A stretch of DNA of 63,876 nucleotides from a bacterium. Its GTDB lineage: Bacteria > Babelota > Babeliae > Babelales > RVW-14. The notes under the pieces were generated by a model that did no database searches, had not been told where the DNA came from, and saw only the letters and a list, made by a program, of their open reading frames with translations. The position numbers and the translations under genes are program-made. Positions 4,216 through 37,234 of the stretch are shown here, piece by piece (the stretch's first letter is position 1; each line of letters begins with the position of its first letter). Location: contig JBDRBF010000055.1 of assembly GCA_043822925.1 (NCBI GenBank), positions 1-63,876 of the forward strand. The letters are read 5' to 3'.

Positions 4216-5274
4216 CTAAATTATAGCTTCCCATTTAATGGCTGTGCCTTTTTTTAAATCTTGTGAAACTTTTTTTCCTAAAAATTCGTCGTAATATTTT
4301 GGAGGTAAGCCAAATCCTGGTCTGACTATTCGTAAGTTATCTTGAGTAAATATGTCACCGGCTTTCATATCTTGAGCTACATACAAAGAGCGGCGATGGG
4401 CAAAAGATGTTTTTTCGTTTTCTCGTGGTCCATAGCTAACAGTTCCTAGCGCTTGCCAGGCTCGTTCAGTTTCTCGTACTAAATTTTTGAGTTCATCTGG
4501 TTCGAGTGAAAAATTTGAATCTATTCCGCCATCAGCACGGCAAAGTGTAAAATGCTTTTCTATGAATGTGGCACCCAGTGCTACACTTGCAATACTAACG
4601 CCAATTCCAAGCGTGTGATCAGAGAGTCCAATTTGACAATCAAAAAGGTCTCGCATATTGGGTATTGTTAAAAGATTCGACTGAGTTGGATTTGCAGGGT
4701 AAGAACTTGTGCATTTGAGTAAGATAAGTTCTTTGCAGCCATTGTTTTTAGCTGTATTAACAGCTTCTTCTATTTCTGAAATATTGGCCATGCCGGTTGA
4801 CATGATTATGGGTTTGCCTGTTTGGGCAACTTTTTTTATCAATGGTAAGTGTACAAGTTCAAAAGATGCAATTTTGTAGCATGGTACGTCTAGTGTTTCT
4901 AAAAAGTTGACTGCTGTTTCATCAAACGGCGTACTAAATGCTATGAGGTCAAGTTTTTTGCAAAGTTCAAATATTGGTTTATGCCATTCCCATGGGGTGT
5001 ATGCTTTTTTATACAAATCGTAAAGATAAGAGCCGTCCCAGAGATTTTGTGGATCTTGTATGAAAAAATCTTTTTCTTTAACATTTAATGTGATTGTATC
5101 TGCTGTGTATGTTTGGAGTTTTATCGCGTGAGCTCCTGCTTTTGCGGCAGCGTCGACTATTTGTAAGGCACGTTCGAGTGATTGGTTATGATTTCCAGAC
5201 ATTTCTGCAACAATAAAAGGTGTTTCACTTGGTCCTATTATATGGTCTGCGATTTTAATGTTTTTATTAGACAT
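4216..5274 (-). CDS. pseI: pseudaminic acid synthase (NeuB-family nonulosonate synthase)
   Basis: 352 aa. PFIVAEMSGNHNQSLERALQIVDAAAKAGAHAIKLQTY plus a C-terminal SAF-like domain. Context with pseB/pseC/pseH favours PseI over NeuB/LegI. Confidence 0.75.
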   Translation of the reverse strand: MSNKNIKIADHIIGPSETPFIVAEMSGNHNQSLERALQIVDAAAKAGAHAIKLQTYTADTITLNVKEKDFFIQDPQNLWDGSYLYDLYKKAYTPWEWHKPIFELCKKLDLIAFSTPFDETAVNFLETLDVPCYKIASFELVHLPLIKKVAQTGKPIIMSTGMANISEIEEAVNTAKNNGCKELILLKCTSSYPANPTQSNLLTIPNMRDLFDCQIGLSDHTLGIGVSIASVALGATFIEKHFTLCRADGGIDSNFSLEPDELKNLVRETERAWQALGTVSYGPRENEKTSFAHRRSLYVAQDMKAGDIFTQDNLRIVRPGFGLPPKYYDEFLGKKVSQDLKKGTAIKWEAII

Positions 5275-8426: not shown

Positions 8427-9317
8427 TTATGTTTTATTCGTTTTATTTTTTACAAACGCAGTGATTGATCTGCCAAAATTACAATCAGCTGCTGTTTCCA
8501 TATATCGAATATATTTTTCGGTTCCTTGAGATACCAAGAAGTTATCGATTTCTATGCGCGCTTTATGCGCTTTTTTCCCTTTGTTTCTGTCTTTCCAATA
8601 ATTTGAGTTCTCATTAAAAAGATATAATTCTACTGGAAAATCGGCCAAAATCGTAACGATATCAAATTCTTGCGATAAGAATTTTTTGAGCGATACAAAT
8701 GTGAAATAATTAAGATGTGCTGGTGGTGTGAACCATGTTTCGTGATCAATATGTCCTTTTGCCAGGAGAAGCTTTTGTAGGTTTGAATAATCGTTTGGAA
8801 CAACAATACGTAGTAATGACGATTGGTGCATGATTTGTTTTATAAGAAGTAAAGATTCCATTGGATGGCTGGCGTGCTCAAGAACATGAGCAAGATTTAT
8901 GAGGTCATATGTTTTTTCTGCTTGAGATAAGCTTTGTAAAATGTCGAATAAATTTCCTTGAGTAAATGATGGCATTAATGATGGATTTTGCTTTTGTATT
9001 CCATATGAAGAGAAGTCGCAGCCTTGCACCAGCCAGTCTTTTTTAGCAAAATAATCGAGAAAGAAGCCTTCACCGCATCCAACGTCTAGCAGTGTTTTTT
9101 CTTTAGGTGTAATTGCAGAATTCACAATAGTTTCTGTGATTAAACCACGATTGAAAAAGTATTCTTTTTCTTCTGAGTCGTATTCTTTATTATAAGAAGA
9201 ATTTTTGCATTCTTGATAGTATTCTTCTGCATAAAATTTGTTTAAGTCTTGCTCTGATGGGGTCGGCGTTACATGATAAAAGCCGGTTTCATGTTTTTGA
9301 ATGTTAAATTTATACAT
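8427..9317 (-). CDS. class I SAM-dependent methyltransferase
   Basis: LLDVGCGEGFFLDYF motif I and YDLINLAHVLEH motif. Confidence 0.7.
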   Translation of the reverse strand: MYKFNIQKHETGFYHVTPTPSEQDLNKFYAEEYYQECKNSSYNKEYDSEEKEYFFNRGLITETIVNSAITPKEKTLLDVGCGEGFFLDYFAKKDWLVQGCDFSSYGIQKQNPSLMPSFTQGNLFDILQSLSQAEKTYDLINLAHVLEHASHPMESLLLIKQIMHQSSLLRIVVPNDYSNLQKLLLAKGHIDHETWFTPPAHLNYFTFVSLKKFLSQEFDIVTILADFPVELYLFNENSNYWKDRNKGKKAHKARIEIDNFLVSQGTEKYIRYMETAADCNFGRSITAFVKNKTNKT

Positions 9318-9328
9318 ACGTCTGTTCT

Positions 9329-10060
9329 TTATAGGTTTTTTTGTTCTATGTGTGAATTGATAAAAAATAAGTCTTCGTGCGTATCTAAATATGCCAGTAC
9401 GTCTTGCATGGTAAAATTATGTTTTGTGGGGTATACGTTTTCTAAAATATTGCTAATAAGTGTGAAATCTTCAGGTGTATCAACGGTCCAGCGGTGATAA
9501 CTATTATCTTGTTCACAGCTTACGTTGGATAGTTTGAATATTTCTGGGTTTTTATAGATATACGGTGTGACGTGTTCTAGTTCACTTTGTTCTTTTGCAT
9601 GTAAAAATGCTTTTTCTAATGCTTTGAAAGAGAAAACTTCTGTGTCCATACCGCGAGGGTATGTTCGAGTTAAGCTGTTAGATACGTAATCGTATGCGGG
9701 AAATTTATCGATATAATGTGAAATAACATGGTCGATAACTGCTGGATCTATGATTGTACAGTCTGACGTAATGCGTACGACGGTGTCAGCATGATGAGCT
9801 TTTGCTGTGTTATAATAGCGGGAGAGTACATTGTGTTCGTCTCCGCGAAAACATTCGATATTAAGATCTTTGCAGAGCATGACAATTTTATTGTCAGCAT
9901 TATTATTTGTTGTTGCGACAACAATTTTGTGAGCTTTTCGTACATGCTTTAACCGGTCAATTTGATATTCAAGAAGCGTTTTTCCATGAACTTTTTTGAG
10001 AACTTTGCCGGGTAAACGGGTAGAATTCATGCGTGCTTGGACGATAATAACAATATTCAT
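9329..10060 (-). CDS. SpsF/PseF-type cytidylyltransferase (probable CMP-nonulosonate synthetase)
   Basis: MNIVIIVQARMNSTRLPGKVLKKV... is the COG1861/SpsF-type nucleotidyltransferase N-terminus. Overlaps the pseC stop by 4 nt. Confidence 0.6.
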   Translation of the reverse strand: MNIVIIVQARMNSTRLPGKVLKKVHGKTLLEYQIDRLKHVRKAHKIVVATTNNNADNKIVMLCKDLNIECFRGDEHNVLSRYYNTAKAHHADTVVRITSDCTIIDPAVIDHVISHYIDKFPAYDYVSNSLTRTYPRGMDTEVFSFKALEKAFLHAKEQSELEHVTPYIYKNPEIFKLSNVSCEQDNSYHRWTVDTPEDFTLISNILENVYPTKHNFTMQDVLAYLDTHEDLFFINSHIEQKNL

Positions 10061-11208
10061 AGTATTGCCTCTTTTATAATACGTACGATATTTTTTACGT
10101 CTCTATTTGTTAGTTCTGGATACAGTGGTATAGATAGTGTTTGCTTATAATATTGTTCGGCGTTAGGAAAGTCGCCATCTTTTAAACCACGTTTTTTATA
10201 GTATGGCTGCGTATGTACTGGAATATAGTGTACTTGTGTGTTGATGCCTAGATTTTTTAGTTTTTCGTAAATTATATTTTTAGGGGTTTTGACGATGTCA
10301 AAATTAATTAAGAGCGGGAATAGGTGAAAAGCTGCTTTTGAATAATTTTTTTCGTGTAAAAAAGCGAAGCGTTTATCTTGTGCAAATTCTTGTTTGTATA
10401 GCGCTACGATTTCGCGGCGTCTTTGTTTGAATTTATTGAGATGTTTGAGTTGCGATATTCCAAGTGCAGCTTGAATATCTGTCATGCGAAAGTTTAAACT
10501 TGGTTCTTGAATTTCATAGTACCAGGGGCCATCGTTTTTAGTTAATAATAACGGATCTTTGAGCATGCCATGCGACCTGAGTTCTATTAGTTTATCGTAT
10601 AATTGCTTGTTATTTGTGGTTATTGCGCCGCCTTCGCCTGTTGTCATATTTTTTACCGGGTGAAATGAGAATACGGTCATGTCAGAATACTCGCAAGAGC
10701 CTACTTTTTTGCCTAAATATTCAGAGCCTATTGCGTGTGCTGCGTCTTCTATAATTATTAAATTATGTTTTTTTGCTATTTCGTGTATAGCTTTCATGTC
10801 GCACGTTTGGCCTGCAAAGTGTACCGGGATTAATACTTTAGTATTTCGGTGTATATGTTTTAAAATTTCTTCAGGGCTAATATTTGCTGTCTCAGGTTCT
10901 ATGTCGGCAAATATAGTGGTGCCACCAGCAACTTCTATGCAATTTGCTGATGCCAAAAATGTGATTGGACTGGTAATGCCCTGGTCGGTTGGTCCCAGGC
11001 CGGCTGCGCGTACTGCCATGTATAAGCCAACGGTTGCATTAGAAACGGCTACAGCGTACGGTGCTCCTGTGTATTTGCACAGAGCATTTTCAAATTCTTT
11101 TATTTTTGGGCCTTGGGTGAGATACGGTGACCGAAGTGTTTTGATGACTGACCAGATATCGAGCCATGAAATAGATTGTTTAGAATAAGAATATATTTTT
11201 TTATTCAT
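10057..11208 (-). CDS. pseC: DegT/DnrJ/EryC1-family aminotransferase, PseC-like
   Basis: SKQSISWLDIWSVIKTLRSPYLTQGPKIKEFE, then FSFHPVKNMTTGEGG (PLP lysine context). Confidence 0.8.
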   Translation of the reverse strand: MNKKIYSYSKQSISWLDIWSVIKTLRSPYLTQGPKIKEFENALCKYTGAPYAVAVSNATVGLYMAVRAAGLGPTDQGITSPITFLASANCIEVAGGTTIFADIEPETANISPEEILKHIHRNTKVLIPVHFAGQTCDMKAIHEIAKKHNLIIIEDAAHAIGSEYLGKKVGSCEYSDMTVFSFHPVKNMTTGEGGAITTNNKQLYDKLIELRSHGMLKDPLLLTKNDGPWYYEIQEPSLNFRMTDIQAALGISQLKHLNKFKQRRREIVALYKQEFAQDKRFAFLHEKNYSKAAFHLFPLLINFDIVKTPKNIIYEKLKNLGINTQVHYIPVHTQPYYKKRGLKDGDFPNAEQYYKQTLSIPLYPELTNRDVKNIVRIIKEAIL

Positions 11209-32403: not shown

Positions 32404-32997
32404 ATGGGCAAAGTTTGTTATATAAAAAGTTTATGTTTTATGATTTGTTTTTGTTTGCTTTGTCCCTTTGTTGATCTTCACGCTATGAAAAGAAAGAGAG
32501 AAGAAGTTGAAGAAGAATTTGGTGAATTTACAGGCAACAAGCGAAGGAAAATGTTTGATCTGGATAATTATAATGGCGAAATAGCAGACGAGTATCTTAT
32601 TATTGTGGCGAGAGATTATTGCGATTTTTTGCCGAAGCTATTGATGAATAGTTCTTTTTTGTATGATGTTTCTGGGGACGGTGCATATGAGGCTCTATCT
32701 ATTGCTTTAAACGATTCTAGATTAGATAATGTTTTAACTGAAATGCTTAATAATATTTCTTTTAGGTCAAAAATTACGGTCTTTGCGTATAGCCTTTTGA
32801 TTCAAGCTATAGAAAAACGAGTTTCGATAATAGTTCTCTCTCAAATTTTAAAGGCATTTGCTTACACAAGAGATGAGTTGCAAGAAGCATATAAACAAGC
32901 TACGAGTAAAATAATACAGACGATTCTTTTAGGTGAAATTGTGGATAGTAAAGATTTTGGGACTGAATGCAATACAAATAGGATGGAAGATGAGTGA
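32404..32997 (+). CDS. secreted hypothetical protein with bipartite NLS-like basic motif
   Basis: Hydrophobic N-terminus (SLCFMICFCLLCPFVDLHA), then KRKREEVEEEFGEFTGNKRRK. No family recognised. Confidence 0.5.
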   Translation: MGKVCYIKSLCFMICFCLLCPFVDLHAMKRKREEVEEEFGEFTGNKRRKMFDLDNYNGEIADEYLIIVARDYCDFLPKLLMNSSFLYDVSGDGAYEALSIALNDSRLDNVLTEMLNNISFRSKITVFAYSLLIQAIEKRVSIIVLSQILKAFAYTRDELQEAYKQATSKIIQTILLGEIVDSKDFGTECNTNRMEDE

Positions 32998-35564: not shown

Positions 35565-36863
35565 CTATTTAATAATTTGCCCTGATTCAATAAGTTTTTT
35601 ATTTGTTTTGCCTACATAAAATGCTGCTGCTATCCAGATACCAATAACGCCGAATGAGACCAGCGAGCCGTACATGATCAAGTCTGTAAACTGTGTGAAA
35701 CACATGTTAATCCCTGATCCTATAGCTTTGGTGGTGCGCAGTCCAAACATGTCTATCCAACTTTTTGTTTTAAATTTGACGTCTCTGCTTGTTGGTATAT
35801 ACATAATTTCTTTGCTTGGATTATTTAATGCGTAACTGAGGGCTTTGATGATAACAACACTTGCGAATAAAATCCATATTGTTGGAAAAACTAACACGTT
35901 ACAGACAGCTAATGCGGTGACGATAGGAAAAAGAACTAAGCAAAAAGTTAAACCAAGTTGGCGTATTAAGAATCCAGTACCAAAAACAGCGAATACGAGC
36001 GACAGGCTATTTGTGGTGAGTCCTAAATAACCAATAAAAGAGGTGATTTTTTCAGCGCTGTGGTAGGTAATATCTGCCAGAAAGTCGAGTTGATATTCTA
36101 AAATAGAGGCAATAATATCAAATAACGTTGCAACACCAAGAATGCCGAGTAAATATTTATGAGAAAAAAGAAGTTTAATGCCTTCTAGTGGTCCTGTTTT
36201 TTCTTCATCAGGAATATGAGCTTCAGCTGTTGCGGGATATAGTGTAATAAAAATTTTTATAAGTATTGGAATGAGCATAACACTTATTGCTATGGCGAGT
36301 GTTAGTGTTGGGATTCCAAATAATGGCGCGTGTATGGCAATAGAAGGGCCGCAAATTGCGCCGATTTGAGCTCCTGCGAGTATTAGGGGGTATCCGCGCT
36401 TTGCAGATGAAACGTCTGTTGAGCTGACAACGAAAGACCAAAAGAGTGTGACAAGTAATGAGCCAAAAGTTTCAATGGCGACATATAAAATCCAGCCGAT
36501 TATACGTTTTGGGCTTGGGTTTGTATTGGCTAGACCTATTGTGTTATGGGTTAATAATAGTGAAATAACTAAAAAAATTAGGCTATAACAGGAACAGATA
36601 ATATAAAAAAGTTTTTGTTTTTCGACTAAATCGACTAACTTTGAGTAAATAAGAATGAGGGGGAAGATAACCAGAAAACTTGCTATTTTTGCATAGGGTA
36701 AATAGAGTCTGCCGACGGTTTTCATGAAGACGGCATCTTTGAGTGGCTTCATTAGCCAGTATGAACCTAAAATAATAAAGAGCGTTGCAGCGAGCATGCC
36801 AAATTCTAAAAGCTCTTTTTTCGTCAGATTTCCCCAGAGGGCGATACGAATTTTTTTGAACAT
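35565..36863 (-). CDS. tlc: ATP/ADP translocase-type nucleotide transporter (NTT/Tlc family), paralog 1
   Basis: Polytopic membrane protein. YWLMKPLKD, LFWSFV...SAKRGYPLI and NNPSKEIMYIPTSRDVKFKTKSWIDMFGLRTTK are typical of Tlc-type antiporters. Confidence 0.8.
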   Translation of the reverse strand: MFKKIRIALWGNLTKKELLEFGMLAATLFIILGSYWLMKPLKDAVFMKTVGRLYLPYAKIASFLVIFPLILIYSKLVDLVEKQKLFYIICSCYSLIFLVISLLLTHNTIGLANTNPSPKRIIGWILYVAIETFGSLLVTLFWSFVVSSTDVSSAKRGYPLILAGAQIGAICGPSIAIHAPLFGIPTLTLAIAISVMLIPILIKIFITLYPATAEAHIPDEEKTGPLEGIKLLFSHKYLLGILGVATLFDIIASILEYQLDFLADITYHSAEKITSFIGYLGLTTNSLSLVFAVFGTGFLIRQLGLTFCLVLFPIVTALAVCNVLVFPTIWILFASVVIIKALSYALNNPSKEIMYIPTSRDVKFKTKSWIDMFGLRTTKAIGSGINMCFTQFTDLIMYGSLVSFGVIGIWIAAAFYVGKTNKKLIESGQIIK

Positions 36864-36905: not shown

Positions 36906-36961
36906 GTCATCCTGCCTGCTCACCGAAGCTTCACGCGAAGGTCGGGAACTTGTTTCAGGAT
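36906..36961. repeat. family-A palindromic repeat upstream of tlc paralog 1
   Basis: gtcatcctgcctgctcaccgaagcttcacgcgaaggtcgggaacttgtttcaggat, with terminal arms atcctg/caggat. It shares the TGCCTGCyC..CGAAGC core. Confidence 0.65.
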
Positions 36962-37018
36962 TTAGTCAAAACGTATTTTCTAACGTGATGATTGTAACGT
37001 TTTTGCTGTTAAAAGCCA

Positions 37019-37059
37019 GGTAAAAATAAAAAACGGGCTCTGGTAAAAAATAAAAAACG
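37019..37059. repeat. two A-tract direct repeats
   Basis: ggtaaaaataaaaaacg (37019-37035) and ggtaaaaaataaaaaacg (37042-37059), immediately upstream of the iteron array. Confidence 0.7.
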
Positions 37060-37072
37060 TTGCGCCAGGCTA

Positions 37073-37182
37073 ATTCGATATTGATAGCTGGCGAATTCGA
37101 TATAGAGGGCTGACATATTCGACATTGAGTATAGACAAATTCGATATGTAATGTTAGCATTTTCGATATGTATATCGAAAAT
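37073..37182 (+). promoter_or_regulatory. array of five 22-bp iterons with conserved ATTCGAYAT head
   Basis: Heads at 37073, 37095, 37117, 37139 and 37161 (attcgatat, attcgatat, attcgacat, attcgatat, tttcgatat), spaced exactly 22 bp. The last unit is part of the palindrome ttttcgatatgtatatcgaaaa. The array ends 52 bp before the ATG at 37235. Confidence 0.8.
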
Positions 37183-37234
37183 GTCAGGTAATTTGTGCGA
37201 TTGAGAGCTAGGGTATAACGTTTGATGGGATGTT

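Follow-up and report, generated by a model that had tools for sequence, protein, structure and literature searches.

What is the role of five short, evenly spaced DNA repeats that stand directly in front of an ATPase-nuclease gene? The question is raised by a 63,876-nt contig (JBDRBF010000055.1, assembly GCA_043822925.1; the whole stretch is hereafter called the window) from a bacterium of the Babelota lineage RVW-14, in which such an array precedes a gene encoding a protein with the Pfam domains AAA_14 and DUF4143. An earlier interpretation made from the letters alone (the sequence-only reading) had proposed a platform for cooperative binding, linked to the neighbouring ATPase, and had offered three roles for it, namely an autoregulatory operator of the ATPase, an origin (relic or still active) belonging to an integrated element, or a regulator site for a divergent transporter gene. 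Comparison with relatives supports the binding platform well, and of the three roles the autoregulatory operator is the one that fits the evidence. With a probability of roughly two in three, we conclude that the array is an operator that overlaps the promoter of a solitary, horizontally mobile AAA_14-DUF4143 gene and is bound cooperatively by the protein encoded there.

The 8-mer TTCGATAT can be read directly on the plus strand at 37074, 37096, 37140 and 37162, and its variant TTCGACAT at 37118. The start-to-start distance of these TTCGAYAT heads is exactly 22 bp in all four steps, and the five phased direct repeats of the sequence-only reading were thereby borne out. Because 22 bp is about two helical turns, all units lie on one face of the DNA. 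An inverted TTCGATAT at 37172-37179 on the minus strand completes a perfect terminal palindrome, CATTTTCGATAT-gt-ATATCGAAAATG, of 26 bp (37158-37183, arms 12/12), which is centred 64 nt 5' of the start codon and has a z of 6.1 against shuffles; the palindrome had been noticed earlier, at 22 nt too short. The nine-base head ATTCGAYAT described at that time holds for the first four units, but the fifth begins with T and reads TTTCGATAT, not ATTCGATAT. Within each 22-bp unit only 11 bp are conserved, and the tails are variable. The units are as follows.

37071-37081, plus strand: unit 1, core TAATTCGATAT
37093-37103, plus strand: unit 2, core GAATTCGATAT, 22 bp past unit 1
37115-37125, plus strand: unit 3, core ATATTCGACAT, 22 bp past unit 2
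37137-37147, plus strand: unit 4, core AAATTCGATAT, within the 17-nt spacer of a promoter-like TAGACA/TAGCAT pair
37159-37169, plus strand: unit 5, core ATTTTCGATAT, left half of the palindrome, starting 73 nt 5' of the ATG
37172-37182, minus strand: unit 6, inverted, ATTTTCGATAT on the minus strand, right half of the palindrome

The periodicity was also recovered by programs, as Tandem Repeats Finder reported a period of 22 with 3.6 copies and 74% matches, and a repeat search returned four copies in register at spacings of 22, 22 and 22. Six of the 12 matches to TTCGAYAT in the window fall inside 106 bp, against 5.1 expected across the whole 63.9 kb, and the nearest other copies (27488 and 51033) are isolated. 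A phased-motif scan across the window singled out 3 of 386 tiles, which overlap and all cover the array. Zero-mismatch matches to the 14-mer GACANNTTCGAYAT are likewise confined to the array in the whole window. The 9-mer had been said to occur nowhere else in the window, which is incorrect: ATTCGATAT is also present at ~8502-8510 (minus strand) and 9853-9861 (plus strand), in isolated copies at chance level.

Comparison with close relatives demonstrates that the gene is inherited along with the 11-bp AAATTCGAYAT, which is repeated every 22 bp and closes with two sites head to head, at a constant distance from the start codon. The closest public proteins are 63-72% identical to the window protein. 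DNA was obtained for ten of these, and a relative of 53% identity (L002) came from a genome collection; scans seeded with the window protein alone gave no matches in genome or metagenome contig collections. Absence of the array from the other copies of the gene family, which the sequence-only reading had named as refuting its proposal, was not what we observed. At least two TTCGAYAT-like matches (at most one mismatch), lying 21-23 bp apart on the same strand or 9-12 bp apart on opposite strands, were present in 12 of 12 independent loci with upstream DNA (proteins 53-72% identical) but in only 1 of the 75 remaining loci of the family (Fisher p = 7e-14), a p-value that is descriptive because the criterion was set after seeing the data and the members of the clade are kin by descent.

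The 11-bp core is found upstream in all 12 clade loci, either as two to five units or, in the most distant, as the palindrome alone. Five direct units are present in L226 and in L224, the latter with a degenerate inverted partner (TATTTGATAT-gt-ATATTGGG), and four in L233, where a hairpin-rich insertion lies between array and gene. Three units are found in L231, in L227 together with an inverted partner, and in each of L082 and L083 together with an inverted partner at a distance of two bases. L086, L235 and L229 carry three, three and two units, respectively, in flipped orientation. L002 has the palindrome only, and the palindrome is still visible in L087, whose upstream DNA ends at 86 bp. 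Alignment of 48 units gives the consensus core AAATTCGACAT with uninformative flanks and a spacing of 22 bp, occasionally 23. Six loci (L001, which is the window, L082, L224, L226, L227 and L002) place the start of the last direct unit 71-74 nt 5' of the ATG; all but L224, whose partner is too degenerate for the one-mismatch criterion, have an inverted partner starting at -62/-63. Since this register is held precisely while the tails drift, the site is under selection as DNA. The neighbour genes of the relatives mostly differ and include ThyX with an ABC transporter, a Cache-domain sensor, a nucleotidyltransferase pair, ankyrin with MutS, RecD2 and an IS3 transposase, among others.

In the window itself the array lies within a 371-bp gap between two divergent genes.

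35565-36863, minus strand: TLC-type nucleotide transporter gene, with unit 1 at 208 bp from its start codon
37235-38428, plus strand: AAA+ ATPase/winged helix/PD-(D/E)xK nuclease gene, 397 aa, with Pfam AAA_14 and DUF4143 and a PADLOC match to PDC-S01; its product is the proposed binder of the array

The window protein matches AAA_14 in its N-terminal P-loop ATPase part (E = 3e-28) and DUF4143, a family assigned to PD-(D/E)xK (PMC3424549), in its C-terminal part (E = 2.8e-50); it belongs to COG1373 and matches the PADLOC model PDC-S01 with E = 8.7e-95. NCBIfam holds no model for it, and a sequence search of the PDB gave matches at the level of the P-loop only, with no relative of solved structure. 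Among 31 sequences the Walker A motif GPRQSGKTT, the Walker B pair D76-E77 and the nuclease residues D319, E332 and K334 are invariant. An AlphaFold2 model built from the 31 relatives (predicted local distance difference test score 89.4; predicted template modelling score 0.90) comprises an AAA+ core (residues ~1-160), a helical lid, a winged helix of three helices and a beta-hairpin (~190-260), and a C-terminal part (~282-394) with an alpha-beta-beta-beta-alpha-beta unit of the PD-(D/E)xK type, the nuclease core within DUF4143 being placed at residues 282-368. The predicted recognition helix spans residues ~220-233 with the motif S-D-Q/N-T-x-K/R-R-W. In fold, the model comes closest to the Pyrococcus Walker-type ATPase PABY2304, to Cdc6/Orc1 (with the DNA-bound 2qby among the matches), to MalT and DnaA, and to Avs and Apaf-1 of the STAND class; matches to Can2 and Cdn1 presumably arise through the nuclease part.

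PDC-S01 is a candidate anti-phage defence gene only. It is reported to rank fourth in abundance among the defence candidates of prokaryotes, most of which still await validation (both PMC12988326), and to be the most frequent individual locus in rumen genomes (PMC13356809). PDC-S01 genes number about 40,000. One representative has been challenged with T4, T5 and T7 and was not among the four candidate systems reported to be protective (bioRxiv 10.1101/2024.09.26.614923). The literature on the family is thin, and no demonstrated activity was found in the literature searched. The family is distributed across phyla and both domains (see also PMC12988326). Several genomes carry more than one member, and the L233 contig encodes a second, 450-aa paralogue at 4342-4838 on the minus strand. 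In a Bacteroidales metagenome-assembled genome (MAG), an AAA_14-DUF4143 gene is preceded at ~130-230 nt by a (GTTACTG)x15 microsatellite (L014 2722-2826), and slipped-strand mispairing there may cause phase variation of the gene.

Palindromic sites are also found in front of more distant members of the family. We scored the region from -170 to -10 in 84 family loci from bacteria and archaea, and the best upstream inverted repeat exceeded z = 3 against dinucleotide shuffles in 40 of them. The mean best score was 10.4 for the family and 6.6 for the upstream regions of neighbour genes at the same loci (Mann-Whitney p = 1.3e-11), and scores of at least 12 were reached by 39% and 6%, respectively. 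The family palindromes are 25-41 bp long and A/T-rich, with centres mostly 26-70 nt 5' of the ATG. The type of operator follows the first residues of the recognition helix (220-225 in the window protein) and not the host.

Helix S-D-[QNH]-T: operator AAATTCGAYAT
Helix [TS]-H-N-T: operator GGACAAATTGTAAAT..ATTGACAATTTGTCC
Helix S-P-N-T: operator AAATCCGCAAT
Helix [TS]-Q-P-T: operator TGTAATTTCAAAAT
Helix D-x-K-T: operator TGGAAT..ATTCCA

The [TS]HNT operator is common to archaea (Methanoculleus, L013, and a Methanobacteriota MAG, L020) and to bacteria of several phyla (L016 and L018, with related sites in L008, L055 and L064) at ~50% protein identity. Conversely, two paralogues of a single MAG that are 47% identical (L011 and L012) have different upstream palindromes. 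The component common to all operator-bearing loci is the gene itself, and nothing else. As helix and operator are inherited together, these data are strong circumstantial evidence, short of proof, that the protein reads the site in front of its own gene.

These observations bear on a different explanation, in which the array is an operator for an unlinked host regulator, possibly one controlling the divergent TLC gene. The array does lie within the divergent intergenic region and holds minus-strand promoter-like hexamers. However, sharing of one operator across archaea and bacteria and paralogue-specific operators within one genome are hard to reconcile with a host regulator, as is the tracking of operator type with the clade of the ATPase across phyla. 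The 208 bp that separate unit 1 from the TLC start codon also count against it. In the relatives the arrays stand beside the ATPase gene amid other genes, and gene calling yielded no TLC gene at any of these loci; we rejected the transporter-operator role put forward by the sequence-only reading because the array travels without TLC genes. We regard a host regulator as very unlikely.

A scan of the window for sigma-70-like sites returned a sole plus-strand match.

37132-37160, plus strand: promoter-like TAGACA-17-TAGCAT, 9/12 matches, embedded in the array

Unit 4 falls in the spacer of this promoter-like element, and the palindrome of units 5 and 6 lies over the predicted transcription start, which is expected near 37167. 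Relatives have a TAGAAT or TAGTAT hexamer at the equivalent spot, directly 5' of the last unit. A comparable arrangement is seen in the [TS]HNT group, where the right operator half contains TTGACA and a TAnnnT -10-like hexamer follows 16-18 nt on in at least six loci. Such an overlap of operator and promoter looks like that of an autorepressor, the sign of regulation being one that we infer. We propose that the site is read by the protein's own winged helix through its recognition helix, and that protomers spaced 22 bp apart would touch via their AAA+ domains, giving cooperative and probably nucleotide-dependent occupancy. By covering the spacer and start of the gene's own promoter, units 4-6 would then feed occupancy back on transcription. 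Repression is the most likely outcome, and would keep a potentially self-damaging nuclease low and buffered.

Several points weigh against an autoregulatory operator. The covariation of helix and operator is confounded by shared descent, and the corresponding winged helix of STAND ATPases often serves the structure of the protein and not DNA binding. The flipped arrays of L086, L229 and L235 are nearer to the ATG and are without the terminal palindrome, and the insertion in L233 puts the array more than 200 bp from the gene. A consensus scan calls the embedded promoter in the window only, the -35 hexamers of the relatives being weak, and, should the true promoter be farther downstream, the palindrome would also be placed as expected of an activator site. 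Most members of the family have a single palindrome and no phased array. Finally, we infer both the binding by the encoded protein and the sign of regulation from comparisons of sequence.

Phased units do occur in other branches of the family. Five TGTAATTTCAAAAT units at 22 bp are present in Flavobacterium gawalongense (L067), six phased units in F. gelidilacus (L077), two to three in a Saprospiraceae MAG (L081), and two complete palindromes 44 bp apart in an Eubacteriales MAG (L066). Carriers of phased arrays or palindromes that are in culture include F. gelidilacus DSM 15343, F. gawalongense GSP16 and Dyadobacter soli DSM 25329 (L059). Two viral contigs (IMG/VR) that encode family members of 35-36% identity each have four direct repeats, ACTTTRGAWWATTC at 23 bp in L247 (~1395-1480) and AKTTTCAAWTRGTCG at 22 bp in L258 (~1400-1480). 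One period shared by differing sequences suggests a constraint set by the protein, with adjacent protomers on one helix face. As only a few palindrome-bearing loci have extra phased half-sites, phasing is specific to certain clades and not universal.

With the same binder, the array might instead serve mainly as a docking, titration or nucleation site for an ATP-dependent nuclease filament along one face of the DNA, with feedback on transcription secondary; titration of DnaA by datA and of Rep proteins by iterons are analogues. Five to six sites exceed the needs of simple repression, the 22-23-bp period in several clades suggests a fixed oligomer geometry, and proteins of an ORC-, DnaA- or STAND-like fold oligomerise upon nucleotide binding. 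On the other hand, most family members have just one palindrome, and the sites overlap promoter-like elements. A primary role in docking is the main alternative to the operator, though an unlikely one. A broader and speculative proposal, which we hold to be doubtful, is that PDC-S01 proteins are sequence-programmed, ATP-dependent filament formers: each lineage would have a "home" array or palindrome and a variable recognition helix, protomers would stack every 22 bp in the manner of ORC or DnaA, and docking would set expression and hold the nuclease inactive until a signal releases or re-targets it.

The geometry of the array, five direct repeats with a 22-bp period beside A-rich DNA, also falls within the range by which iterons are recognised (at least three repeats of ~17-22 bp), and the sequence-only reading had accordingly raised a replication origin. 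We scanned metagenome and viral contigs for three exact TTCGAYAT copies at 21-23-bp spacing, which gave at least 136 loci. None of the matches listed encodes a relative of the ATPase, although a scan that demands three exact cores does not imply that ATPase-linked arrays are absent from the collection. The 22-bp matches among those listed are tandem arrays in which the whole 22-bp unit is conserved, and the adjacent proteins were RPA-family plasmid Rep initiators in 3 of 6 arrays checked (L102, L105 and L183). In these three, near-perfect 22-bp iterons with TTCGATAT (e.g. TTTCGATATTTCACACAC...) stand beside RPA genes (Pfam PF10134, E ~1e-85) at 10640-10692, 5161-5213 and 1245-1297, respectively. 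These plasmid iterons and the window array have the 8-mer and the period in common and are otherwise unrelated. TTCGAYAT at an exact 21-bp spacing was seen in at least 71 metagenome or viral loci (within L088-L223), a period that would fit coding repeats of seven residues.

A Rep-dependent origin, or the relic of an integrated plasmid or phage, would have real counterparts in plasmid iterons of the same 8-mer and period that adjoin RPA rep genes, and the ORC/Cdc6/DnaA-like fold of the adjacent protein would suit it. The surroundings of the array do not. Its neighbours are the AAA_14-DUF4143 and TLC genes and not a Rep initiator of the Rep_3, RPA or TrfA type; no Rep, Par (partition), integrase, phage-like or other mobile-element gene lies within ~10 kb, and no Rep, Par or integrase domain was found in the 15 open reading frames (ORFs) scanned from 27466 to 48128. 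The DnaA box TTATCCACA, with at most one mismatch, has no match between 32948 and 43599, the nearest ones lying at 32940 and 43599. A skew plot had been suggested as a check for a replication switch, and GC skew is positive in every 2-kb bin of the window, the cumulative skew climbing monotonically with no change of sign. Furthermore, 11 of 22 bp are conserved per unit as opposed to the near-perfect 22-mers of genuine iterons, the A-tracts beside the array are not conserved, and arrays of this kind stand at many places in chromosomes, each time with the ATPase gene. An origin is highly improbable.

We also considered that the array is a recognition or processing site for the mobility of a single-gene cassette, the nuclease acting on its own palindrome or array in transfer or homing. 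The ends of transposons can carry comparable arrays of sites, such as the 22-bp TnsB sites of Tn7. The solitary gene is an insertion into a row of three TLC paralogues, some relatives carry the array the other way round, and a terminator-like hairpin bounds the array in L082, with a similar one in L224; the family is, moreover, found across phyla and both domains (PMC12988326). However, no second inverted array or motif copy lies downstream or nearby, and the fixed distance to the start codon is better suited to the control of expression. We judge a role in mobility to be quite unlikely. A transposon-end array of the Tn7 or Mu type found no support, as scans with the 8-mer and the 14-mer showed no second, inverted array near the gene or at its other end.

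An element acting as RNA (a 5' leader or a small RNA), or a small ORF (36966-37160, minus strand, 64 aa), is extremely improbable. The palindrome can form a hairpin, and the ORF was listed mechanically. The fold z-score is only -1.8, though, the direct repeats do not pair mutually, and the best Rfam matches reach 15-21 bits versus gathering thresholds of 37-55 bits. Flipping of the array between relatives argues against a transcribed element as well, coding repeats with a 22-bp period would not keep the reading frame, and nothing stands out in the 64-aa translation.

The self-recognised operator that we favour has partial parallels among known systems. Archaeal Orc1/Cdc6 proteins with their origin recognition boxes (ORBs) share the AAA+, lid and winged-helix architecture (fold matches 1fnn and 2qby), the repeated and partly dyad-symmetric sites just 5' of the binder's own gene, and the assembly of several protomers on one DNA stretch, here proposed. 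The window protein differs in its additional C-terminal PD-(D/E)xK nuclease and in an identity of 13-15% in the fold alignments, and the gene is accessory, horizontally spread and often multi-copy, at a locus without origin features. MalT and other STAND transcription factors likewise belong to this broad class of folds (8bob ranks high among the matches) and are NTPases that oligomerise in dependence on ATP, and MalT binds cooperatively to several short asymmetric promoter boxes. However, MalT reads DNA through a C-terminal LuxR-type helix-turn-helix and activates other operons, whereas here a winged helix inside the protein is the candidate reader, the promoter targeted would be that of the gene itself, and a nuclease acts as effector domain. 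Rep-bound plasmid iterons (R6K, pSC101 and the RPA family) are likewise repeated directly every 22 bp along one face of the DNA, and they also autoregulate rep and titrate Rep; the window array differs in having no Rep gene or origin context, an 11-bp core only, and a palindromic end over a promoter-like site. The C-protein boxes of restriction-modification systems and operators of the BrxR/CapW type also lie across the promoter of a gene with self-toxic potential, along with which they are transferred. There, binding falls to a small regulator protein of its own, whereas here the enzyme is the only conserved candidate binder, there is no regulator gene, and the arrays are larger than typical C-boxes. 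By analogy, then, the array resembles ORB/Orc1 or iteron/Rep in geometry and the restriction-modification C-box in logic, and is not a member of any of these groups. No report of conserved upstream operators for the PDC-S01 family was found in the literature searched.

On the self-regulation reading, which is the most likely, the array offers a first experimental handle on a very common, uncharacterised candidate defence gene. If the sites are the protein's own recognition sites, they would be the first defined ligand (a specific DNA) for the family, easing biochemistry and structure determination. The restraint of a potentially self-damaging nuclease without a partner gene would then be explained, and the match between helix and operator across clades would amount to a readable specificity code. 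If filaments do form, the family would supply naturally orthogonal pairs of protein and operator, each equipped with a nuclease, and the "defence" label might need revising. If the sites are ordinary promoter furniture, the finding shrinks to an annotation detail.

Two further elements lie upstream of the array in the window.

37019-37059, plus strand: two A-tract direct repeats, GGTAAAAA(A)TAAAAAACG, from the repeat search

The repeat search agrees here with what had been described earlier, and places AAAAATAAAAAACG twice, 24 bp apart (37022-37035 and 37046-37059). The A-tract repeats are not conserved upstream of the arrays in relatives and are therefore probably outside the conserved module; their role, if any, would be local, e.g. 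in bending the DNA or in serving one divergent promoter or the other as an UP-like element. Farther upstream, the hairpin at ~36906-36960 could not be confirmed as a member of the "family A" of palindromes to which it had been assigned, since the window holds no second copy by sequence; it is not conserved in relatives either. MITE-like (miniature inverted-repeat transposable element), hairpin-rich elements with ends like GTCATCC...GGGATGAC occur between or beside arrays in L233 (~1440-1640), L235 (~1650-1840) and the window (36906-36960). Directly 5' of the array, L082 (2353-2373) and L224 (~2300-2325), whose neighbours differ, have a terminator-like hairpin, AGTGCCACAGCTTGTGGCACT with a T run behind it, which may be the upstream boundary or insulator of a transferred cassette.

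The ATPase gene is the sole plus-strand gene in a minus-strand run of UvrD, TLC, [ATPase], TLC, TLC and the ATP synthase beta subunit (AtpD), and the farther neighbours GrpE, HtrA, FtsJ and SecA make up a housekeeping context. The three paralogous TLC-type ATP/ADP transporter genes stand in a row (35565-36863, 38534-39892 and 40200-41531, all on the minus strand), with the ATPase-nuclease gene between the first two. Together with a G+C content of ~37% and the names of related proteins, these three transporters point to a probable member of Dependentiae/Babeliales and to an energy-parasitic intracellular bacterium.

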